Shown here: in pieces, positions 1-63,512 of the stretch | Numbering within the stretch: position 1 is the stretch's first letter | Layout: each line of letters opens with the position of its first letter | Source of the DNA: Vezdaea acicularis | Lineage: Eukaryota | Length of the DNA: 64,000 bases | Direction: 5' to 3' | NCBI GenBank assembly: GCA_026025075.1 | Contig: JAPEUI010000083.1 | Location: 1-64,000 of the forward strand | Notes under the pieces: model-generated | What the model was told of the DNA's origin: nothing | Database searches by the model: none | Seen by the model: only the letters and a program-made list of their open reading frames with translations | Made by a program: the position numbers and the translations under genes

Positions 1-386
1 GCTATAGGTTGGCCGGAGCGGGCAAACTGTCCCCAGTAAAGATGGGGCCGTTCCGTATCAAAAGCAAGGTAGGACGCCTAGCCTACGAGATTGAATTGCC
101 ACCGGAACTTCAGGACATCCATCCAGTAATCTCGGTGACACACCTGGAACAGGCGCCCGACAAGTCATTGACGCAGGGCAGGAAGCTGCCACCCCCTGGT
201 CCTCTCCTGGTGGACGGCCAGGAGGAATGGGTTGTCGAACGGATATTGGGCCAAGAGAGACGAGGAGGGAAAGACTTCTATAAGATCAAGTGGGAGGGAT
301 ACGACGGTCCAACCTGGGAGCCTGCAGAGAACATAGCAGCAGACGTCCCTCAGCTGGTCCGGAAGTTCAAAAAGACACGGCGTTAG
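1..386 (+). CDS. pol C-terminus: integrase GPY/F (SH3-like) region plus chromodomain (partial)
   Basis: GPFRIKSKVGRLAYEIELP..IHPVISVTHLE and EEWVVERILG..YKIKWEGY..TWEP; stop TAG at 384-386. Confidence 0.95.
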   Translation, partial: YRLAGAGKLSPVKMGPFRIKSKVGRLAYEIELPPELQDIHPVISVTHLEQAPDKSLTQGRKLPPPGPLLVDGQEEWVVERILGQERRGGKDFYKIKWEGYDGPTWEPAENIAADVPQLVRKFKKTRR

Positions 387-689
387 CTGTGTCGTATCCC
401 CTAAGAAATACTGAATAGGGGCTACTATCTTGAGATAGTTACCCCTATATTGATATCGCTTACGAATTCGCTTATTTTAGATAGTTAATTTAACTTGCGC
501 TGAGCTGTAGCTCGCTTCACCTCACCTCACCTTTCGTCGCTACACCTCATCTATCCTTCATTCTTACACCACCTCATCCTTCGACAAGGTGATTCTCTTG
601 ACGTCTATAGTACTACCGCGGGGCTTGCCCCTTCGTAATAAACATACCGTTTAACATACCGCTTTATCACCTCAGCCTGTCCGGTTACA

Positions 690-2969
690 ATGGCCCCCGG
701 TGCAATGGCTTCGGTGCATACAAACGTCCCGCCGGTCAAGTGGGCCAAATATGACTTTAAACCCGTCCGAAGAGCTTGGCCTCCTTCCTGGAGGGATCGT
801 CACATCGAGGGCGCAATCTACGCAACTTTTGGTCTGTTCTCTAGCCCTTCCGACCGTGAGATGGCTAAGAGACTTTTCGCGATCGAAAACGACCCAAACG
901 ACTGGCCTTGTCGTGCTATTAGACGCGGCTGGAACATCAAGAAGCAGCCAGAGTTTGACGACAACATCGTTGAACTCTTCAAGGAGACGTTCCCCACCTG
1001 CGACAAGACGGATGGCCAGATTGGTAGAGCACTGAAACAAGACATCCTGATCAAGAATAAGATCCTCATACAGGCTCTCAAGGAAGACGGCATCGAGACA
1101 AAGCTTCAATACCGATTGTCCTGGGAACACGAAGCTACATTGGTACGATACCCCACCTTCGACGAAGCAGAAGAAGGGACAGGAGCTTATGACGATCCTC
1201 TCGCAACGGTACCCGAGTTTGGCAATTGGGAAGACGCCTTAAACGTTACAAAGGCCAAACTCCAGCGCGAGAAGATGTCTGCCATGGCTATGAGATCACT
1301 GTCCCCATCCGGGTCAACCCAAGCTATGGATCCAGAGGAAGAGCACAATGATACGGTATCGGACAAGATAGCTCGCGCAGATGCAAACGTGGCTATTCAA
1401 AGCATTGAACCCATCCTGTCGCCAGTACAATCGACCATGGCGCCGCCTCGTCGGGTCACACGGTCCGCGACGCACCAGCCGACGGCCTCTATCGTACACC
1501 CCGTGTCCATATCATCTTCCATATCGTCGTCCTCGAGCTCAAGCGGGTCTGAAACAATAAATGCTGTTGTAACGAACACTCGAGAAGACACAAGGGAACC
1601 TGATACATTTGTGAGCCCAGACACGTTGCCCGTGCCACGTACAAGACCGCTGGCTGCGACATCTCGGTCCCCAACACCAAGAACCACGCCCTCCAAACCC
1701 GTCGAACAAGTCTCCACTGCTCTCACCCAGGTCTCAACTACAGGACGTACCGCTAGGGCAGGAACCAACCCTCTCTGGACCCCAGGCGCTCAATTCCCCG
1801 CTGGAACATGGCAACCTACTGACGGACACGGCGATGAAAACGGTCCGAACTGGCTTCTGTATGACCCGAGGGGCCCCTTGCCTATACTAGACTCGCGAGG
1901 ATACTCGGCGGACGACAGAAGACTGATGACCTTCCCGGTGTACGTTAACCTGAGCGACAGAGCGACAGGGCATGTCATCATGTCGATGGTATCCTACCGG
2001 ATGAAACAGAAGTATTGGCCAAATAACTTCCGAAAAGATGCTCGGCTGGCCAGGAACTACGTATCAAAAGGGGCAGGATTTTTCTTCGTGGACGGACGAG
2101 TTGGGGCGGTGGACACCATCAAGCTGCTAGGTGCTGATTTTCATGGCAAAATCCCAAAACACTACAACCTGCCGATTGGAAGCGCCCAGTCGAATGATCA
2201 GCTGCAGGACCTTCCCCCCGATGACCTTGCGGTGGCAGACTGTTTTCTTCCCGTACCGGCATCCAGCTTAGGCGGGACACAACCATCTGTTGGACCAGGA
2301 CAATATGCCGTGCCTAAGTTTGTCGTCGCCGTCACCCCCCCAGCTCCAGGACAAAAGGATGCAAGCATTCAAGTAAAGAAGCCAGCAACATCCCGTCGAT
2401 CAGCAGATACGACGCGTTCATCGGTATTTCCTAGTCAGCGTCGTCTTCCACCCTTACAGTCGTTGGAGCCCCAGCCAGTGGAACGCCCCAATATCGCCAC
2501 ACATGAACCGCGACAAGCTTCATCTCCTCCTAAGGGTGGTTCATCGCGTCTAAGCAAGGTATCAAAGAAAAAACTATTTGAGGAGTCAAAAGCTATCAAG
2601 GAAGAGGTAAAAGCCCATATGGCACGTCTGGAGGAGCTTGACCGTCAGTTAGAACCGGATCCAGCTCCGCTAAGTACTCGAAAAAAGCATCAGCGTCAGC
2701 ATAAAGCTGCCCCCGCTCCGTCCTCTTCACCCCCTCAGCGTGTCCTGCCACAGACGACCAGCTTCCAGCCAATCAACGAGCCCGGCCCGTCTGGACACCC
2801 TGATCATAGACGTTCCTCGACTCAAACGTTCAATAGCGACAGTCTACGTTCCCCCGGTATGCTCACGGGTCACGACAATCAGGTTGAGGGCGATGGACAA
2901 AAGGAAGCAGCGTGGCCTGAAGATGACCTCTACGCTGACTCTCCAAGGCCATCGCCTCCAAAGGGATAA
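690..2969 (+). CDS. Retrotransposon-borne extra ORF (ORF3), 759 aa, unknown function
   Basis: Uninterrupted 2.28 kb ORF, ATG in ACAATGG context, lying between the pol stop and the PPT; no family recognised. Confidence 0.8.
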   Translation: MAPGAMASVHTNVPPVKWAKYDFKPVRRAWPPSWRDRHIEGAIYATFGLFSSPSDREMAKRLFAIENDPNDWPCRAIRRGWNIKKQPEFDDNIVELFKETFPTCDKTDGQIGRALKQDILIKNKILIQALKEDGIETKLQYRLSWEHEATLVRYPTFDEAEEGTGAYDDPLATVPEFGNWEDALNVTKAKLQREKMSAMAMRSLSPSGSTQAMDPEEEHNDTVSDKIARADANVAIQSIEPILSPVQSTMAPPRRVTRSATHQPTASIVHPVSISSSISSSSSSSGSETINAVVTNTREDTREPDTFVSPDTLPVPRTRPLAATSRSPTPRTTPSKPVEQVSTALTQVSTTGRTARAGTNPLWTPGAQFPAGTWQPTDGHGDENGPNWLLYDPRGPLPILDSRGYSADDRRLMTFPVYVNLSDRATGHVIMSMVSYRMKQKYWPNNFRKDARLARNYVSKGAGFFFVDGRVGAVDTIKLLGADFHGKIPKHYNLPIGSAQSNDQLQDLPPDDLAVADCFLPVPASSLGGTQPSVGPGQYAVPKFVVAVTPPAPGQKDASIQVKKPATSRRSADTTRSSVFPSQRRLPPLQSLEPQPVERPNIATHEPRQASSPPKGGSSRLSKVSKKKLFEESKAIKEEVKAHMARLEELDRQLEPDPAPLSTRKKHQRQHKAAPAPSSSPPQRVLPQTTSFQPINEPGPSGHPDHRRSSTQTFNSDSLRSPGMLTGHDNQVEGDGQKEAAWPEDDLYADSPRPSPPKG

Positions 2970-3021
2970 GTCTGCCGTGGCACTCCGACGCTACTACAGG
3001 ATATCGGGACGATATCTTTTC

Positions 3022-3030
3022 GGGAGGGGG
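3022..3030 (+). promoter_or_regulatory. Polypurine tract (plus-strand primer)
   Basis: GGGAGGGGG followed by CAATC and then TG, the LTR start; preceded by TCGGGACGATATCTTTT. Confidence 0.85.
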
Positions 3031-3035
3031 CAATC

Positions 3036-3333
3036 TGTTGTGGGACAGCGGGATAGGGGCAGATGGGCTATAGGGGCAGGAGCAGGTACGCGATATACTG
3101 ACAGACGCAGCCTTCTTATAGCGCCTGCCCATAGGGGCAGCGCTATAAGGCATGCGACTGCCCTGCAACGGACAGCGCTTACTGCGCTGTCCTGACCGGG
3201 CAGTCGTGACCGGGCACGTGATGACCCATATATATAGCGTATCCCCCTAGATAGAAACAATGCAACTCTTTCATCATAAACCCGTATCAGGACGCCTTGT
3301 CCTTGCAGTGTCTGGACACCCCGTGCCCTGACA
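3036..3333 (+). repeat. 3' LTR (~298 bp)
   Basis: Starts TGTTGTGG 5 nt after the PPT and ends CCCTGACA exactly where transposase-like sequence begins; TATA-like ATATATATAG near 3228. Confidence 0.82.
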
Positions 3334-3978
3334 ATATTTCTCTCCATTCATACGGCCATCTAGCATTACCATTGACCCCAATTCTTTCCCTTTCATATAA
3401 ACCCATACTCCAACTGATGTCCGGCCGCTTTTGAATGTTGGAGTCAAACATTCTGCAAGATATTCTTCAGCTGGTTGGCGCCAGACCCATATTACTCGAG
3501 AATCTAAGCCTAATTCAATATTGCATTCATCACTGAATAATACTTGTGACCAATCTTCAATAGACCAATGCTCATGAGCTAGCGCAAATGCTAATCTTAT
3601 ACGCTTATGCTCTGCCTTCAGAAATGGCTTGCGTCTTGCAATGCGCCGATGATATCCATATTTATTCAAAGCAGATTTTACTGTTGGAACACTGCATTCA
3701 AAAACGCGGCATAGCTCTTTTATTGAAATATGGCGATCTTGTACTGCCATGCGTACTAATCGTCGCTGATCTCGAACAGAGAGAAACTTAGGTCGACCGC
3801 TCTGTGGCCGTCGAGCGGTAGGATCCTCGGGGTTCTCCTTAGCTCGAGTTACAGCCCTTGAGATTTGGCCAAGAGAAACATGCTCGGTGTGGACTATAGA
3901 GCGATAAGCCACCTTGTGTCGCACAAGCGCTAGGATGGCAGACGCTTTGCGAGGGGTCAGATGTCTCTTTGCTAACAT
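3334..3978 (-). pseudogene. Tc1-family transposase (HTH + first half of DDE), truncated by insertion
   Basis: SGRPKFLS, RRIARRKPFL, W..VLFSDE, VWRQPAE, SVGVW, DGRMNGEKY; after Y the frame runs into LTR sequence. Confidence 0.9.
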
Positions 3979-4109
3979 TTTACTATGATAAGATACTTCT
4001 ACAACTATCTACGGCTTCAAAAGTGGTTATCGAATGCCCCCCGCTACCCCGCTAACTGCTAACGAGTTACGCAATTTTAGCGTGTTCCAATACTTTCTTT
4101 CGCTAACTG
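3334..4109 (-). mobile_element. 5' part of a Tc1/mariner DNA transposon, interrupted by the LTR element
   Basis: Transposase ORF plus terminal TA|CAGTTAGCGAAAGAAAGTATTGGAACAC read on the minus strand. Confidence 0.88.
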
Positions 4110-4111
4110 TA
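4082..4111 (-). repeat. Tc1 terminal inverted repeat with TA target site (4110-4111)
   Basis: TA-CAGT start typical of Tc1 ends; the partner TIR is not in the window, so TIR length is approximate. Confidence 0.7.
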
Positions 4112-4738
4112 CATAGACCAATGTCAGAGATACATGGTACGACTGGAAGATACCAAAGTTTGTCAAAGGAAGCCAGCCAATGGGGGCCCAGGATATGCAG
4201 TCAACCTTAGACGAATTGCGCCTCGATGGTTGCGGCAGTGAAGGCCTCAATTGATTTACTTCCAGGGCTTGCCAAAGCCCCGGGTAAGCTAGTATGGAAT
4301 AGCATTCCTTGATATCGCCACAATTTGCAACGCCAGTATACCCAATTGTACGATCTAAATTGGAGAGGTCAAAAGCTGGATGCATGTCCCCGCGAGGTAA
4401 CAGAAGCGCAATATTTTTGTAGACAAAGGGAATAGGGCAGAGTTGATTCGACACAGGCGCGATTTCCAGACTCTTGAAGTTCTATGACATTACAGTGCCT
4501 GCCGAAACAGTAGGTTTCCCACAATGCATGCCGCTATAAATATGCTTACTCGTTCATACTCAAGTCTTTGCTTTGGATGCCCCATGGATAATAGCAGGGT
4601 TCTCGGCGCGGAGTTACTTTTTCGCCGACGTCGCATATCTCAGAATTTCCGAACTAGGCAAGCTTAGTTCCGGCGAGTGGATCGCAACTTTCTTAACAGG
4701 CACAACTTCCTTCGCCCTCAGGAAGACAATATCCCAAG

Positions 4739-8300: not shown

Positions 8301-10017
<1,717 letters not shown>

Positions 10018-19599: not shown

Positions 19600-22415
19600 C
19601 TATTTCAATATAGTAGGAAAGCACTGACCTTGGTTTTCGCAAGCCTTCCAGACAAGTCCTCCAAATTGAACAATCCATCCACTGTTAAAAAGATTTTGAC
19701 GGCGCAGAGTCCCAGGCCAGTAGTAGTTCGACATGGATGTTGCGCCTTGCACAAGGCAGGTGACATCAGCAAAAGGGTCGAAACTTCCAAGAACTGGATC
19801 TATTGCATAAGGATTGATGCTTGATTCCATCTCCCAGCGAACAAGTATGAACATAGCCTGATCTACATATAGGTAGAGCTGATGATCATGGCGGATAATC
19901 GTAATGAGAGGATCTGGGAGCTCGACAATAGCATTGGCTTCGAGATCATATCCTTGTCTACTCAAAGAGAATTGTGTCAGGTCCATTTCAGAGGAGTCGC
20001 CAAAATCGAATCGTGACTCTTTTGGGATCTTTTCATCAGTATTCAAGAAGTTGGCCGGCACCGATTGTCGAAGGGTAGGGCTGGTTCGCGAAAGATTCGT
20101 GGAATTCATCCGGACCGTCGCACAGTGCAAGACTGTTGTGTTCTCCTTTTCAATGGTCCTTCTTTTTGGAACATAAGGAACGTATGGCGATACCCCGGAT
20201 AGCATGTTTGACCATGGACGATTTAATGTTGCCAAAAAAGAGTTGGCCAGCTCGAGACGGTCTAGAAAATGCTTGACGTCTCCTGTCCAGTTGGTGTCCT
20301 TCACAGAAAGGGCCGGTATCGTTGCCGCAAGGTCCAAGAGCCTGAAATGTGGCTCAAGATCCTTCTGCTGCTGTAGGTCTAATTTAGCGAATTGTGCTCC
20401 TTTTAACCTCGAGGACTGACCCGGAACGCGTGCATGCAATACACCATCAATGAAGAAAACATTATCCGTACCAGGAACTCGAGGGTTACCACGACGCTTT
20501 CGAACTTTATTTGAGTCGGCAGCAGTCGCCGTATCCTCTTGGAATTTTCGAAGCCAATACTTCTGGCGCATATCCCACAGTGTCCCTAAGTCTTGATTGT
20601 CTCTAACGCACCGAAAATCTTTCCAGGCGTTTCCATTAGGCATCTGCCCTACGCGACCGTTTTCTTCAATTATAGCCTTCAACAACGTACTAGGCCCTAC
20701 AGCGTTGGAAACGACACGTAGTTGCACGTTCTGTGCAGACAAAAACTTTGTTGTGCCTCTTGGGATAACAAATGCCATTGGATGGGAAGCCTTAGTCACC
20801 TATGAACAGAAGTCAGCAAAAGGTCAGTCAATGAAGCGTACATAATCATATTGTTTTATGTCCAGGTCGCAACACCAACCCTAGCTTCTTTCTCGACAAG
20901 TATCTTTTGGCCACCAGGCACAACAAATGCGTGTGAGAATGTCCATATGTCGCCCTCTAGAAATTGGCCAAAGAGAGCCATTTCCTCCAACTTGACCTTT
21001 CGGCTTTCACCTGCAATGACAACACCGAGCTTTTGCTTTTGACCCCAAAACTCCTCGAATTGATCGTTTTTGTAATCGTCAAAAAATCCATGCTCTCGCT
21101 CCTCCATTGCAGCAGCGGCTTGTTGAACCCAGTCTGGATCAAGGCGGCCGTTGCTAAGGTCTTCCTTGAATAATCGGATATGGCTGCGGTAATGTTCATC
21201 GTATTGTAAAAATCTGGAGGAGAGCCGGACCTTCCCATCAACGCCTATTTCAAGGCTATGGTCTGGCATCAGCGCTCTGAGTTCCTCTTGCTCCTCGGCG
21301 CTCAGTACATCCCAAGCTTGAGGGTTAGCAAGTAACTTCTGGATCAACTTAGTTCCTTACACAGATTTCCGCTTTTCAAGACTCATACCTCAATATCAGT
21401 TGTGACTAAGATTGATTTGGGATTTTCGAGCAGAAAGTTTTCAGACCAGATGTCAGACTTTGCACGTTTGGTAACTGTTGAAGTCTGGAGGTTGGGTGCA
21501 ATTCGCTTGAGAGAGGGAGTCTTCACCGGACTAGCAGCAGCAGGCTTCGCTGTGTCACTAACATCCATAACATTCAGAGTAGACTCCATCGCATGCGCAG
21601 TGATTGTTGGTCCAATGATCATTGGTCCGGGAAGGAACATATCAGCCCGACCCATACTCTTGGGAGATGAGATGTTGGAAGGAACATCAGAAAGTGGGCT
21701 TGAACTTCCCGAGCGGCTGCAGGTATAGGTCAAGGCATCATCAATGCTTGTCGATAAGCTGGTCAATTTCATATGATCGTCAAGAGAACCGGAATCTGTC
21801 ACGACCTTATGGATATCCATGGCCGATTGTGTGGTCGAAGGAGATGGTGGTGGTCCAGAGGCGGTAATAGAGTGAGTACTAGATACTAGAATAGGGAGAA
21901 GCTGTCAGCCTTTACTGCAAGCAAACAAACACAATGCCAAGTGCTTAGTCCGATGTGGTAATTAGTCTGTAAGAAATCGAGCGATTGCGTTCCCACGTCT
22001 CTCTTAAACAATCGCTACACAATCAGCCTTGGAAAGTGGTAGACCTTTCTTTTGCCACTCTCAGTCTAGAGGTAGTAGACAGCCAGCATATGGGTCAAGG
22101 TTTCATCATTACAAACTAATGGTGGACTGAGTTGCAAGGGAAGGCGAGTGAGCAGATGTTCCAATTCAACATCACTGATCAGAGATTCCACAGAGAGAAA
22201 TATGCGATCCGAAATGGCCAATAGACACACTCAAGGGAGATCGAGCCACGGAGATACAGAGGTAACTTACGCTGGTCTGAAGGTGCGGAACTCCGAAGCA
22301 GTTCAGTGTCAAGTTGAACGTCTCCAGGACTTGAACTCTTCGTGTCAAAGGGTGCCTGTTGCTCTGCTCGTATTTTCGCAGCGGCTAGACGGCGTTTTGA
22401 ACGAGTGCCAGCCAT
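19600..22415 (-). CDS. Asx homology (ASXH/DEUBAD) domain protein with a long C-terminal extension
   Basis: NPKSILV..AWDVLSAEEQEELRALMP..FKEDLSNGRLDPDW..EEFWGQK; first exon MAGTRSKR joins in frame across intron 21886-22270. Confidence 0.8.
21961..22120 (-). ncRNA. Candidate intronic structured RNA with box C/D motifs
   Basis: ATGATGA (22103-22109), CTGA (22061-22064 and 22023-22026), 12-bp closing stem, inside a 385-nt intron. Confidence 0.35.
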
Positions 22416-26157: not shown

Positions 26158-26664
26158 ACATGTTAATGATACAAACTAAACCAGAGGAGCCACCTACTTG
26201 CACGTGATTATTTCGGCTCGAAGTTCAGTCATGTAGCCATATAGCTTGTTTATATGTTGACTTTTCAGCGCGAATAAAGCAGAGCTCGTGACGAGCTTCG
26301 ATGTCAGCAGCCTCGAAATTTACCGACAGCATGTTGACGCCTGCCACGTTGACATGCCCGACCTCTAGGGAAGCCCTCCATCCCTCAAAGGGGAAGATTC
26401 ATGCTCATATTCCAATACCAAGCTTATTGTACGGGAGTTGGCAAGATCAGAAGTATTCACCGTGGCTGTGTCAAATCTTGTCTTATTCGTATGCTCCGAG
26501 GCTTCGACGTTTCTTCCCTTTTTTGAGCAGTGCTTCATATGAAGCAAAATTTGCAAGGAATACTCTCAACGCAAACTCCATGCATGGAAATGATGCGTCT
26601 ACAGTTTAACAACTGAGAATTGAGCTTTGCACCTTTTCCTTTTGCCTATAGTTCAGACGCTACT

Positions 26665-28317
26665 ATGGAGAGCCGAAATTCTCCAACCAGAAATAACACT
26701 ATGAAAACGGCTCACGGTGGTATTTTTAAGTGTCCACGATGTCCTTTCACAGATTCGGTGCCAGGCATTATTGAAATGCACTATGACCATATTCACGTTC
26801 ACGGAGATGCCAAAGGACAATCTAACCAGACATCAACCTTGCCTGCCTTAATAGGGGGTTCGCACCTGAGAGCGGCGGATGTTTCTTCTGAGGATGACAA
26901 CGACGAGTACGCGAATTGCCCAAACGGAAGCTGTGGAGAGGTCATCCTGTTGTCTGAAATGTCAAGCCATATGGACATGCACATGGCCGAGAATTTGACT
27001 TTTCAAGGAGAAGATGTAGCGATCAATCCTAAAGATACATCTTCGCAGCCGTCTGTTACAACAAATGGCCCCAAAAGATCACATTCTGGCTCTAGCTATT
27101 CAGACGGCTCTCGACACCATGATCGGCGGCGGAATGTGCCCAAGAGTCCATATGGCTTTAAAGGTTTTAAGAGTATTAAGGAGATGCTCGGTGGTCTTAG
27201 CCCAAGCTTAGAGAACGGGAAGCAAGTTGCGGAACCTCGCAGAAAGCAGTCTGATGGAGGGAAAGGTGTAAGGCTTGGGGTAAGTGACCACTGCCAATCA
27301 TAACTCTGGTAGTCACACTTCTGATAGTAAGTATGGGGGCTGACATAGAGTAGAGATCGCAACTTGGACCCCATGCGCACGAGAAGCAAATGCCAGCATG
27401 GCTTCGCAAGAAAATCGAAGATGGAGAGCCCCTTGTATATCAAGCTCGAATCGGTGTCAACGGCAAGACCGAACGCCACAAAGTCACTCCCAATGAAACG
27501 ACGGAGTCAATACTAGTGATATCACAGCTGTGCCAGCTCGATCCTGATACAGAGCAAGTTTACTTCTGTCACCCAGCTGTAGCTCATATCTCCAAGATGC
27601 AACGAGAAGGTGGCTTCTGCGGGTATCGCAATATCCAAATGATGGTATCATACATCCAGGCAGCTCAGTCTCCTGGATATGAGCAGTTTCCAGGACCTAT
27701 ACCCAATATACTGACTCTTCAAGATCTGATCGAAGATGCTTGGGATAAGGGCATCAACGTCTCAGGCCGGGCGGAGACCGGTGGTATTAAAGGAACAAGG
27801 AAATATATAGGTACTCCAGAGGCACAAGCCATGCTCCTCAGCCTCGACATACCCTGTAATGCTCTAGCATTCCAGAGCAGTCCCGAAGGCAGCGCCTATG
27901 AGGGTCTCTTTGACGCAGTAGAAACATACTTTCAACGTGGCTGCGCTGCGAACGACAAGAAAATTCAAAAGACTTGGATGCCCCCACTCTATTTCCAGCA
28001 CCCTGGTCACTCGCTTACCATAATTGGCTTTGAGCGTAAGAAGTCAGGGGCTCGAAATTTGCTTGTCTTCGACCCTTCTTTTAAAGCTCCACAAGGAGTA
28101 CGCGACAATATTGGGGCAACTTCCATCCAGGTACGCAATCCAGCAAAGCTACTTGGAGCATACCGGAAAGGGGCGGGATACCTGAGGAAATATAAGCAGT
28201 TTGAGATACTCATGTGAATTTATCTCTCCGACCCGGTAGAGCACTTTGCATTTACTAACGTAACAAAGGTTATCCCATCCAGTGGATGTCGTTGAAGGAA
28301 ATATTTGGGCCCCTTGA
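26665..28317 (+). CDS. ZUP1/ZUFSP (Mug105-like) peptidase C78 deubiquitinase with N-terminal zinc fingers
   Basis: CPRCPF..H...H and CP..C..H...H fingers; GGFCGYRNIQM, QHPGHSLTIIG, LLVFDP; ends approximate. Confidence 0.85.
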
Positions 28318-51646: not shown

Positions 51647-53856
51647 ATGGCGGCAACACCGAAGAGCTCGCAGCCGAAGATACTCGTGCCTGCAGAGAAA
51701 GTTGCACTTCGAAGACCGCTAGAGAAAGACAAGGATGGAGGCATCCGGTTCAAAGGGTGCTCCAAGATTGCGGACTATGAGGTACAAGCAAAGCTTGGAG
51801 AGGGCACATTCGGGTAAGCAGCGTCCCTGGATGAGAGCTAAGAGGGGACCTAGTGCTGTACTGACATGGATTTATTCGTTTAGAGAGGTCTACAAGGGAA
51901 GATGTCAAAGGACGGGCAGGGTCGTAGCCTTGAAGAAGATATTAGTTATAAATGAGAAAGATGGAGTAAGTCTATATCATTATGCTTCAATTGGCTTTTA
52001 ATAACACTGTCTGATAGTTTCCTATCACCTCGCTGCGCGAGATCAAGCTATTGAAATCTCTCAATCATGTCAACGTTCTCAAGCTTGTGGAGATGGCTGT
52101 CGAAACCCACAAGCAAACAAGAGGTCAGTACCCGCTATATGACCCAACTATCACTTACTGACTTTACTTGGATCCAAGGTGAGAAGAAGAAGAAAGCGAT
52201 AATGTACATGGTCACACCATACATGGATCACGATCTCTCTGGATTACTCGAAAACCCTGATGTCAAGTTCACAGTCCCCCAGATCAAATGTTACATGATA
52301 CAGCTCCTAAAGGGAGTCGCGTATTTGCATGAAGAGCAAATCTTGCATCGAGATCTGAAAGCTGCCAATATTCTCATTAATAATCGAGGAGTGTTGCAGA
52401 TTGCAGATTTTGGGCTTGCGCGGCTCTACTCGGAGCCAGTTCCACAGAAAGGGAAGGGTAATGGGCCTGGCGGCCGAGATTATACAACCATGGTCGTGAC
52501 CCGTTGGTATCGGCCGCCAGAGCTCCTGCTTCATTTGCGCAAGTATACTCCTGCTATAGATATGTGGGGTGTCGGGTATGTTAATTGTAAACCCATCTTG
52601 GACTTCTAGACTGTAGCTGACCTGTATATAGCTGTGTGTTTGCAGAAATGTTCCACGGGCGACCAATACTTAGTGGGCACTCCGACCAGAATCAGATCGA
52701 ACTTATATTCGAGCTTATGGGGCCGCCGACGGAACAGAGCATGCCGGGATGGAAGTCCCTTCCTGGCATACAGGGTCTCATTGTAACGACGCAGCAAGGT
52801 AACATCGAACAGCGATTTGGACAGTAAGTTCTCCTGTCAGCTCTGTCATGAGAATCGTCAGTAAACTAACGGATGCATAGGCATGGCGCGGACTTTGTGT
52901 CTCTAATGAGCCAGCTGCTGAGACTAGACTGGAGAAAAAGAGTCAACGCCCTCGACGCTCTTGAACATCCATACTTCAAGAAGTCGCCACTGCCTGCTTG
53001 GCCAGGTGATATTCCTCGATTCGAAGATTCCCATGAACTTGATCGAAGGCGATTTAGGGGCAAGCGTGCAGCTCTTCCTCCTGCACCTGCTGGAGGGACT
53101 GTTGGAATGGGTCAAGGGCCAAGTGATTGGGCCTCTCGGGCCCCTGGGACCAATGGTACGCAAGACTGGGGCAGCGGCCGTCGTCCAGGAGATCACGGCA
53201 ATTTCACGGCCCATACCGGAAATGTAGGCTTTGAACCACACCATGACTCTCGAATGAACCCAGCTCAATACGCCCAGAGATCTCGTGGTGGACATAGCCG
53301 TGGAGGTTACTCGCAACAAGATTCAGGTCGCCCTGGAGGTGGATATCAAGGCCATTCATCGAACCGGAATGCTTTTTGGCGTCAGCCCGGGGATAATGAC
53401 CCTTACTTTCCTAAGGATAACACGTGGTACGGGCCTAACGGAAAGCCATTAATTAACGATCAAGGGTGGAACCGTTCGAACGGTAGACCCACGCCAACTC
53501 ACCAATGGGGAGCTGATGGATCTGGGTCTCGCGATCAGCTGACGCCGAGGGTAGGCGCTCCCAGAGTGGATAGCTATGTACCCGACCGGGACCGCGGATC
53601 AGCTCGACCACCGCAGGAGGGCCGAGTAGATCGTTATATCCCAGGCGGCAGAGATGATGATGATAGACGAAGAGGCCGGGATGAGCGGAACGACCGATCC
53701 AGATGGAACGGTGACAGAGACCGAAGACGTAGCCGCAGCAGGAGTCCAGTGCGAGATCGAGACAGACCTCGTGATCGTGATCGTGATCGAGAGCATGATC
53801 GGGACAGAGACAGGGACCGTAATCGGGATCGGGATAGAGACTCTCATCGTCGCTGA
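51647..53856 (+). CDS. BUR1: CDK9-like kinase Bur1/Sgv1
   Basis: [53 protein letters not shown]-rich tail. Confidence 0.93.
53750..53842 (+). repeat. Degenerate hexamer coding repeat (Arg-Asp dipeptides)
   Basis: CGTGAT/CGGGAT/AGAGAC units encoding RDRDRD. Confidence 0.8.
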
Positions 53857-61386: not shown

Positions 61387-63512
61387 ATGAATCAAATGTC
61401 CACACCCTCCTGGTCGCATTCGGCACATCACGATCCTATGGTTTCGGCCCCAACCGAGGATTTTGCCAGCTTTCTCGACTTGAGTGACTTTTCCATTGAC
61501 TTCGGCGATTTCGAAGCTCCCGGGCAAACCGAACAGGATCTTCAACATGATGTCTCCAACGCGATGGATACCAGCCTTGACGGGCTGGATACAACTGCTG
61601 TGGAAAGTGGGCTTCAAGACCCATCTCAGCCGATAGAAAATATGCCCAATAAGACTCGACAGTCTCTGAGAATTGCAAATAGCGGTAATATTTCCGGTCC
61701 AACTAGTATGAGTGTTCGATCGCAACCTTTCCAAGACCAGCAAATATACGATCCATCATTTAGGCACACGGCCATACCGCCAACTCCAAATAGCATCGAA
61801 CTGCAGGGCGCAGCAGCTCAATACTATCATCATCAGCTTGATCAGCAGACGAGTGCGCAGATATTACTTGAGCGCTATCAGCGGATGAGAGAGGACCAGG
61901 TGAGAAATGAGATCATCATCTAAATCTTGGCCAAAGCTTATCAGAATAGAATATGAACTTCACTCCACTTGTCTCCCCCGCAGTCACTCCTCTTGAGACA
62001 CAGTTTATTCCCGAATTCACTATTCCGGGAACTGACTTTAGTCCCTTGACTTCTCCAGCTCTTGAAGCTCAACATCAAGCCGCTCAACGTTCGGTTTACA
62101 ACAGCGGTCGAAGTTCTGATAACTCTATCGGGACTTCGCCGATTGATGCCCATGTGGACGCGGCCCACAATGATTCTGCTACCGATGGTGGTCCTGCAAG
62201 GAAGACACGACGTAAAATGCCCACTCCTAGAAACCCATCTCGGGCTGTGCGGCAGTCTCCTGCAACTCGGGGTCAACGGCGCAAACCGCCGCCCAGTGGC
62301 ATCATACCTCCGAAAGAAGTCACCGAGGTGATTGAGGATGCCCAAAGATCAGCTGGCCTCCAGTTTCACAATGGCGTGAATCAGCATAATCGCGGTCACG
62401 AAAGCTCTGGTACAGAATCCATTTCTCCAGAGCCGATCTCCGAATCTCTTATGGGGCCACCACCCGCTCCACGTCATTCGATGGAGAGATCTCCTTTCCT
62501 AGCCGCAAAATCAAGTAAGAGCCCGCGCACATCTGCCCAGGGACTGGCTTCGAGCGGACTATCCCCCGCTACTCCTGCTTCCTTGATGCGCCTACAGAAA
62601 CAACCATCGCAACCTCAAATAACAAGCAACACTTCTTCGCCAAGACAGACACGATTCCTGCCTGGCCTTGAACAGCCCATGGAAGATATGAGGCTTCCGG
62701 AGGCGGCGACCGCTACTCGCCCTACCCTCTCCCGTTTAAGCACCCAGATAGCTGATGGTCAGAGCACACCGACGCCTTCTGCAAGGACTCCAGTCTCCAG
62801 TCGTAACGGCTCCACTTCCGTTGCAACACCACTGAGTGCGTCTGAGAGCCCGCAAGTCGGCGCCATTGCCTCCCCAACAGGCTCGACGAGTTATCGAAAG
62901 CCGGATGCTAAGCAGAACGCCCGGAACAGCAAGAAACGGAATAGTTCTTCATCGGTCCATGTCTCCCCTGCACTCAGGCCTAAGGTCTCGCCCAGTATTA
63001 AGCCCCTCCTACCGGAAGGCGGTAAGTCAATCATTTCTTGCCTCTTACTCCACCACTGACAAACATCTATAGTGACTATCTCTGCGGAAACCTCTGCCCT
63101 TCTCCTTGCTACAAAGTCAAACTATCAGAACATCCTTGAAGGCACTCACCTCCCTGGCGTCGTCTACCACTCCGATCTCGCAACGAATTTGTCCTACAAA
63201 CGTACTTCCCATAAGCTGGCCGAGCAAGGCCGTCGCGACCGCATCAACACTGCCATCGAGACCATTAAGAAGATGCTACCCTCAAACGGCAAGGATGACG
63301 TCGAACACGGCAACGGCGGTTCAAGCAATAGCGTTAGCGGGACTACGAACAGCTCCAAGGCGAGCACGGTCGAAATGGCAATCGAGTACCTCAAAGACAT
63401 GCAAGTAGCCGTCAAAGACGCGAACGATCGTGCGGAGAAGGCAGAGCAACGAGCGAGGCTCGCTGAACAGAAAATTGAGGCTCTCGAGCGCGAGCGGAGG
63501 AGCAGCGCTTGA
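61387..63512 (+). CDS. PHO4: Phosphate-acquisition bHLH transcription factor (Pho4/NUC-1/PalcA)
   Basis: PPTPNSIEL, FTPLVSPAVTP, FSPLTSPAL, KSNYQNILEG, KRTSHKLAEQGRRDRIN, SKASTVEMAIEYL. Confidence 0.92.

Follow-up and report, generated by a model that had tools for sequence, protein, structure and literature searches.

The DNA analysed here (the window) is a stretch of 64,000 nucleotides (nt), positions 1 to 64,000 of the forward strand of contig JAPEUI010000083.1 from Vezdaea acicularis, and it begins with the 3′ part of a long terminal repeat (LTR) retrotransposon. The features of this part follow each other in a fixed layout (Table 1): the end of pol, which encodes the integrase and its chromodomain, with the pol stop codon; a spacer of 303 nt; an intact open reading frame (ORF) on the same strand, which is referred to as ORF3; 52 nt that separate the ORF3 stop from the purine run GGGAGGGGG; and the 3′ LTR. 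ORF3 starts with ATG and encodes 759 amino acids (aa). Its coordinates and both distances had been given in an earlier reading of these letters that was made without database searches (hereafter the sequence-only reading), and all of them were correct when read directly from the window sequence. Fungal LTR retrotransposons are normally described as carrying gag and pol only.

Table 1. Features of the chromovirus 3′ part and its insertion site in the window.
Feature	Position	Strand	Description
pol 3′ end	3-386	+	integrase SH3_Tf2-1 and chromodomain; TAG stop at 384-386
Spacer	387-689	+	303 nt, between pol stop and ORF3 start
ORF3	690-2969	+	759 aa, ATG start
Module N of ORF3	762-1289	+	aa 25-200; identity to window: P0001 93%, P0012 54%, P0006 33%
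Module C of ORF3	1755-2279	+	aa 356-530; identity to window: P0001 94%, P0012 60%, P0006 53%
Basic helix-prone module of ORF3	2511-2669	+	aa 608-660; identity to window: P0001 83%, P0012 58%, P0006 26%
Polypurine-tract candidate	3022-3030	+	GGGAGGGGG, 5 nt before the LTR
3′ LTR	3036-3333	+	298 bp, TGT...ACA; TATATATA box near 3228-3235
Tc1/mariner transposase remnant	3334-4008	-	HTH_Tnp_Tc3_2, E 1.2e-14

ORF3 within the repeated element

The window opens inside pol, of which a 127-residue tail (frame 3-386) is present. This tail matched the Pfam families SH3_Tf2-1 (E 6.5e-13) and Chromo (E 2.4e-11, at residues 76-124), and the integrase's C-terminal chromodomain assigns the carrier element, by its sequence, to the chromoviruses of the Ty3/gypsy group (Metaviridae). 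When longer proteins were searched with the 127-residue tail, the best match was P0015, a 1,371-aa pol protein with the domains RVT_1 (467-622), RT_RNaseH (733-841), Integrase_H2C2 (944-1001), rve (1017-1115), SH3_Tf2-1 (1233-1294), and Chromo (1320-1368). The window pol tail is 81% identical to the C-terminal 127 residues of P0015 over 127/127 positions, and the two proteins end at the same residue.

The ends of the LTR were examined with Logan contigs from four metagenome runs (X1-X4), which contain 30-58% of the words sampled from window 1-3400 and whose contigs were aligned to window 1-4500 at ≥80% likeness. Past 3333, the contigs enter mutually unlike flanks (8, 6, 6, and 6 contigs in X1-X4, respectively, with a consensus agreement of ~0.5), and unlike flanks are also found before 3036 in four X3 contigs. 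Because many different flanks begin at exactly these positions, 3036 and 3333 are the ends of a dispersed repeat, and both ends of the LTR are thus confirmed by the metagenome contigs. The summed contig depth of X1, which is no copy number, rises from 15-45 per bin over 1-3000 to 255-305 per bin over 3001-3300; the jump at the LTR start recurs in the other three runs. In all four runs, the summed depth of the LTR is ~8-10 times that of the internal part. Several contigs also break inside the LTR at 3115, 3131, 3186, 3209, 3221, and 3295, and one joint returns from 3333 to 3263. Together with the high depth of the LTR, these internal breaks suggest that many solo or variant LTRs are present.

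Contigs also connect ORF3 with the parts on both of its sides. Of 420 contig pieces, 32 were listed. In this sample, the junction of pol stop and spacer is covered by records 1, 9, and 16, and that of spacer and ORF3 by record 25, which differs from the window at 13 of 275 letters. Records 5 and 13 extend over the ORF3 stop and through the purine tract and differ at 36 of 240 and 12 of 141 letters, respectively. The junctions are thus unchanged in copies that differ by up to ~15%. The spacer is also spanned by contigs of other runs, at 202-650, 324-650, 324-576, and 505-779. ORF3 lies inside the repeated LTR element, where the sequence-only reading had placed it, in sense orientation between the end of the pol stop codon (386) and the first base of the LTR (3036), and it persists in diverged copies, whose contigs keep both junctions.

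The same records bear on the idea that, in this copy alone, an unrelated gene or mobile element came to lie between pol and the LTR, either as a chance neighbor or by nested insertion. Such an event could pass unnoticed in a window that starts inside pol and in which a single copy is directly readable. Both junctions are, however, common to diverged copies, and none of the five joints listed bypasses ORF3 from pol to the LTR. Moreover, a search for direct or inverted repeats at the two ends of 387-3021 gave only matches of 12-28 nt, as expected by chance, and the depth over ORF3, summed over contigs and no copy number, resembles the depth of the pol tail. We consider an intruder confined to this copy to be very improbable.

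Coding status and modules of ORF3

Chance does not account for a frame that stays open over 759 codons, as its probability would be ~e^-30 even at ~0.04 stops per codon. Intact frames of 634-768 aa are found in four diverged lineages of the ORF3 family. At the 27 listed variant sites inside the ORF, which were taken from the metagenome contigs, 16 changes are synonymous and 11 are non-synonymous, compared to 8.6 synonymous changes expected when the 22:5 transition-to-transversion mix of these sites is taken into account (binomial P 0.003; crude ratio of non-synonymous to synonymous variation, pN/pS, 0.22). Given the long open frame, the modular conservation described below, and the excess of synonymous variants, ORF3 is a real gene under purifying selection. 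The sequence-only reading had raised the ratio of non-synonymous to synonymous substitution rates (dN/dS) as a question on which an accessory gene would stand or fall, and the crude pN/pS points to purifying selection.

The ATG of ORF3 is in the context A(-3)/G(+4). The second Met of ORF3 (M6) is aligned with the first Met of its relatives P0012, P0006, P0007, and P0014, and a Met is found at one shared alignment column in five ORF3 lineages. Over 1-3333, no signature of repeat-induced point mutation (RIP) was found, with a TpA/ApT ratio of 0.84 and a (CpA+TpG)/(ApC+GpT) ratio of 1.07. Base composition fails to set ORF3 (GC 0.54; GC at third codon positions, GC3, 0.53) apart from the pol tail (0.63) or the host genes (GC3 0.46-0.70).

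As judged from the alignment of its relatives, ORF3 is made of three conserved modules, fast-evolving linkers that are rich in Ser, Thr, and Pro (S/T/P), and a variable tail. Two aromatic-rich blocks, S/T/P-rich linkers, and a basic segment had already been noticed from the letters, and the measured composition agrees with this description: aromatic residues and S/T/P account for 10 and 17% of aa 1-205, 1 and 43% of aa 206-355, and 11 and 19% of aa 356-530, respectively, and Lys and Arg (K/R) account for 23% of aa 613-660. It is their conservation that suggests that the blocks are folded. The identity of P0012 to the window ORF3 is 54% over aa 25-200, 25% over aa 201-355, 60% over aa 356-530, 25% over aa 531-607, 58% over aa 608-660, and 24% over aa 661-759, and the linkers flanking the basic module are 21-27% identical in P0012, P0003, and P0006. 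The invariant residues of module N include C74 and C104. Module C is the best conserved part of ORF3, with the motifs TWQPTDGHG, FPVYVxLSDRAxGH, and KGAGYFFVDGRVG, and the motif of the basic module is RQASSPPKGxSxRLSKVSKKxLFEESK...

No transmembrane helix was found in the window ORF3, in which the top 19-residue Kyte-Doolittle mean is 1.02; the highest values across six family members range from 0.93 to 1.09, which are under the usual threshold of 1.6. Together with the lack of a Pfam or PDB match, these values uphold the view of the sequence-only reading that ORF3 is not an envelope protein. An identity as Env or an env-like protein is ruled out by the absence of a hydrophobic segment and of a match to envelope or fusion families. 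Gag is ruled out as well: no Retrotrans_gag or zinc-knuckle match was found in Pfam, and the translation contains no CCHC zinc knuckle of the form C-X2-C-X4-H-X4-C. A match to a known env or gag protein, which would have spoken against a novel third gene, was looked for in Pfam and among the PDB sequences, and none was found in either.

Other attempts to identify ORF3 gave similar results. In Pfam, it has no real family match, the noise being DUF4554 at E 0.53 and single-member matches, and no family recurs among 11 ORF3-family members even at E up to 10. The only NCBIfam match was a low-complexity one to PspA (E 0.013), far under the cut-off, and a profile search of the PDB sequences with ORF3 returned 0 matches at E up to 10. 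In the ESM Atlas, no usable match was obtained for aa 350-540, and those for aa 1-205 were all ≤0.80 and to unnamed clusters. When the ORF3 profile was compared with the pol protein P0015 by hhalign, no similarity was found (probability 0.1). AlphaFold2 models were built from 9-row alignments. Module N is predicted with low confidence to be all-helical, its model consisting of helices only at a predicted local distance difference test (pLDDT) score of 48, and the model of module C, in which some beta-hairpins appear without confidence, is unusable (pLDDT 29). A Foldseek search of PDB with the module N model gave no match at E ≤0.001, the best one having an E of 0.81 and a template-modeling (TM) score of 0.15. 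A link to rhodaneses was also considered and rejected. P0010 and P0011, two long rhodanese-repeat proteins, match the ORF3 profile weakly (E 1e-5 and 1e-4, respectively; seven stretches each; profile positions ~483-570), and these matches are judged to be spurious because no Rhodanese match was found in Pfam for the 11 members at E up to 10.

Relatives, expression, and proposed role of ORF3

A word-indexed search of 5.8 billion proteins returned three matches to ORF3, and a profile search of all 1.84 billion representative proteins returned seven strong matches and two weak ones, which are judged to be spurious. The named relatives, KAI9854766, KAI9865615, KAI9853584, and KAI9853204, are all hypothetical proteins of a V. 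acicularis metagenome-assembled genome (MAG), and the remaining ones are ENA or Logan predictions. P0001 is 84% identical to the window ORF3, P0012 and P0003 are each 44% identical, and P0006 is 34% identical; fragments lie between these values. As far as the libraries show, the ORF3 family is restricted to Vezdaea, in which at least four well-separated lineages exist. A match to an ordinary host gene would also have undone the sequence-only reading; no relative outside Vezdaea was found among the 1.84 billion representatives, and some of the relatives within Vezdaea may be host genes. The Joint Genome Institute (JGI) metagenome contigs, in which 95 pattern stretches matched, yielded 0 relatives of ORF3.

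Two of the relatives are informative about the association of ORF3 with pol. P0012 and the pol protein P0015 are both from ENA, and each is encoded on a single 9,431-bp contig. Because these are two rare proteins of the same kind of element and their contigs are both exactly 9,431 bp long, P0012 and P0015 very probably share one contig. Their coding sequences add up to 6.4 kb, which would leave ~3 kb of the 9,431 bp for gag, spacers, and LTRs. This pairing is the only evidence that the association of ORF3 with pol predates the window's own subfamily. The sequence-only reading had asked whether homologues always sit downstream of chromodomain integrases; in the second lineage, P0012 very probably accompanies such an integrase, that of P0015.

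The history of ORF3 could also have been that of a passenger, in which a lineage-specific host gene was captured by transduction or template switching and is carried without benefit to the element, so that the selection observed would reflect host paralogues or a recent capture. Consistent with such a history are the diverged paralogue lineages in the Vezdaea-type data, which number at least four to six and are mostly of unseen context, and the lack of similarity between ORF3 and pol or transposon families. ORF3 is also far more diverged between lineages than the pol tail (44 vs. 81% identity). According to the available part of a review of additional ORFs, however, transduced genes are found in one or a few copies and true additional ORFs in most copies (PMC7264820), and the ORF3 junctions are kept in several diverged copies. 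The second lineage is very probably paired with a chromovirus pol as well, and the 1.84 billion representatives contain no homologue from other organisms. A captured passenger is, on balance, unlikely, although a capture from the host may stand at the origin of ORF3.

The spacer provides clues to how ORF3 might be expressed. Six in-frame stops lie between pol and ORF3. The spacer contains five plus-strand copies of CACCTCA within 157 nt (518-674); the whole 64-kb window contains 12 matches to CACCTCA vs. 9.2 expected, and 5/12 are in the spacer. This cluster may be an internal promoter, an enhancer, or a splicing element. Close to ORF3, the branch-like motif TTTAAC at 650-655 is followed by a pyrimidine-rich run and by AG at 674-675, 14 nt 5′ of the ATG, which together form a candidate 3′ splice site. 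This AG is the sole one in the open stretch 642-689.

Pol, read from base 3, has the same reading frame as ORF3, which opens at 690, and GT at 382-383 overlaps the pol stop. ORF3 could then be spliced onto the integrase as a further C-terminal targeting module past the chromodomain, as GT 382-383 and AG 674-675 would join the two in phase by removal of a 294-nt intron. Such an extension of pol is at odds with the Met start conserved in five lineages and with the identical end residue of pol in the window and P0015. GTTAGC makes a poor splice donor, and ascomycete introns are usually shorter than 294 nt. No fused or longer protein (1,330-3,795 aa) with ORF3 was found, which is weak evidence. 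We regard an ORF3 that is fused to the integrase as quite improbable.

Our preferred explanation, to which we assign a probability of about 0.78, is that ORF3 is a genuine protein-coding gene that belongs to a chromodomain-bearing Ty3/gypsy LTR retrotransposon in a lichen-forming ascomycete of the Vezdaea type, with an accessory role included. The Met column is common to five lineages, and pol stops at an identical residue in the window copy and in P0015; ORF3 would therefore be translated from its own conserved ATG. Because a 3′-proximal ORF is out of reach on the gag-pol RNA, its translation would require a second mRNA. This mRNA would most likely be a spliced subgenomic RNA that uses AG 674-675, in the style of retroviral env and with its donor off the window; alternatively, it may be a transcript that starts in the CACCTCA-rich spacer. 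No RNA run carrying the window sequence was found among the seven sequencing runs listed. With a basic module and long linkers, but neither enzyme nor membrane signatures, the protein would be an intracellular, non-enzymatic accessory factor or adaptor that raises the element's own success. Its location can be guessed to be the nucleus, the particle, or the pre-integration complex, to which it might be directed by the basic helical module. The amino-acid difference between lineages is 40-46% in the conserved modules of ORF3 vs. 19% in the integrase tail, and a divergence of the modules that is ~2 times that of the integrase tail would fit a factor that faces a changing host partner or defense.

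Several points weigh against this explanation. The 5′ LTR, gag, reverse transcriptase, and primer-binding site are off the window, and a match of 3036-3333 to the 5′ LTR is presumed; no repeats ≥40 nt were found within the 64-kb window, so it contains no second copy of the element or 5′ LTR. The variant sites (27 best-supported ones in the ORF and 40 listed overall, with 518 beyond these) mix alleles, strains, and paralogous copies, so that the pN/pS value gives an indication and does not stand for a true dN/dS. ORF3 is decayed in some copies: P0002 has no similarity to the family past residue ~570, and P0001 is short of 46 linker residues compared to the window ORF3. Decay in some copies is as expected of a transposon. 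The linkage of P0012 and P0015 is drawn from the equal length of their 9,431-bp contigs, and their order and strand are inferred. Some of KAI9854766, KAI9865615, KAI9853584, and KAI9853204 may be free-standing host genes. As relatives of a retrotransposon-borne ORF, the four proteins are probably products of transposon genes that repeat filtering missed. Finally, the activity proposed for ORF3 is a guess, on which the only constraint is that its sequence has no membrane or enzyme signature.

A more specific version of this explanation is offered tentatively, and we think it doubtful that all of its parts will hold together. In this version, ORF3 would be a long-held third gene of a Vezdaea-type chromovirus clade that encodes a protein of an unseen fold family. 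It would be expressed from an env-style spliced RNA, act inside the cell, evolve at ~2 times the rate of the integrase, and counter or exploit a host defense or chromatin factor.

Comparison with known elements and surrounding genes

Genes beyond gag and pol are known from other LTR retrotransposons, and the comparisons made here refer to the available portions of the cited papers. For plants, a review covers additional ORFs that lie between pol and the 3′ LTR in either sense or antisense orientation (PMC7264820). The plant aORF-3S or env-like ORFs of Athila, Bagy2, and SIRE occupy the same slot in the same orientation as ORF3, are found at the family level, and usually have no database homologues; for Bagy2, a spliced subgenomic RNA is documented (PMC7264820). 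The plant env-like proteins typically have transmembrane segments, in contrast to ORF3, which also differs in its fungal host and its chromodomain-bearing carrier and has no sequence relationship to them.

Among fungi, the same review names Boty, a Ty3/gypsy element that carries the antisense gene brtn (PMC7264820), and brtn in BcGypsy1 is described for Botrytis along with further annotated additional ORFs in other LTR elements (PMC8365987). Like ORF3, the extra gene of Boty/BcGypsy1 of Botrytis cinerea lies between pol and the 3′ LTR (Zhao et al., 2011, as cited in PMC7264820 and PMC8365987). It is set apart from ORF3 by its orientation: brtn is antisense, whereas ORF3 is sense. No search returned a similarity between the two, brtn itself not having been among the sequences compared. 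A study that surveyed the LTR elements of 59 fungal genomes mentions, in its available part, extra domains only in "complex transposons" that arose from multiple insertions (PMC3248453).

Captured ORFs have also been reported outside these groups. The Ty3/gypsy elements of orchids carry an ORF for a 2-oxoglutarate-dependent dioxygenase (2-ODD), an AlkB-like N6-methyladenosine (m6A) demethylase, which, like ORF3, is carried by a Ty3/gypsy family and has been kept through the diversification of its subfamilies (PMC9289625). The orchid ORF has a recognizable enzyme domain, an origin from a host gene, and Tat/Ogre-like carriers that are not chromoviruses, whereas ORF3 has no recognizable domain. 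LTR retrotransposons of bdelloid rotifers with captured additional ORFs are similar to the ORF3 element in that ORFs beyond gag and pol are a family trait, although the kingdom and the ORFs are different (PMC5408684).

The element in the window is an LTR retrotransposon with a family-level additional sense ORF, which is an already known class, and the orphan protein is its own. The sequence-only reading had suggested a potentially undescribed lineage of chromoviruses with three ORFs. The slot itself has precedents, as extra ORFs in it are known from plants and Botrytis, and the part of the suggestion that stands is that a sense, non-envelope third gene is new for a fungal chromovirus in the literature searched. 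No such gene of a fungal chromovirus, and nothing on the transposons of Vezdaea, was found in that literature, most subscription journals being outside the search.

If the preferred explanation is true, a chromovirus has selectively maintained a large, non-envelope third gene, and ORF3 offers a tractable case for the accessory functions of retroelements that have no extracellular phase. Candidate functions would include integration targeting, nuclear entry, and escape from RNA interference, heterochromatin, or RIP. Being without detectable relatives or a predictable fold, the ORF3 family would be a candidate for a new domain family. Several hypothetical proteins of Vezdaea would also be explained as transposon genes, which bears on genome annotation and on counts of orphan genes. 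If the reading of ORF3 as a participant in an arms race is true, it would be a fungal retrotransposon counterpart of the accessory genes of retroviruses.

Downstream of the LTR, the chromovirus is inserted into the transposase of a Tc1/mariner element. The mariner frame is cut inside its catalytic domain at 3333/3334, and the minus-strand frame continues into the LTR. A diverged copy of the mariner element (X1 record 7) runs 309 nt beyond 3334 without the LTR, as expected of the uninterrupted target. In addition to five long frames (215-398 aa) without a Pfam match at E 1e-5, which are located at 9095-9742 (-), 19600-20796 (-), 26617-27300 (+), 52870-53853 (+), and 61950-63056 (+), the rest of the window contains ordinary fungal genes, such as those for CLPTM1, WAPL, Es2, Elongator Iki1, class V myosin, P5 ATPase, Hsp90, and others.

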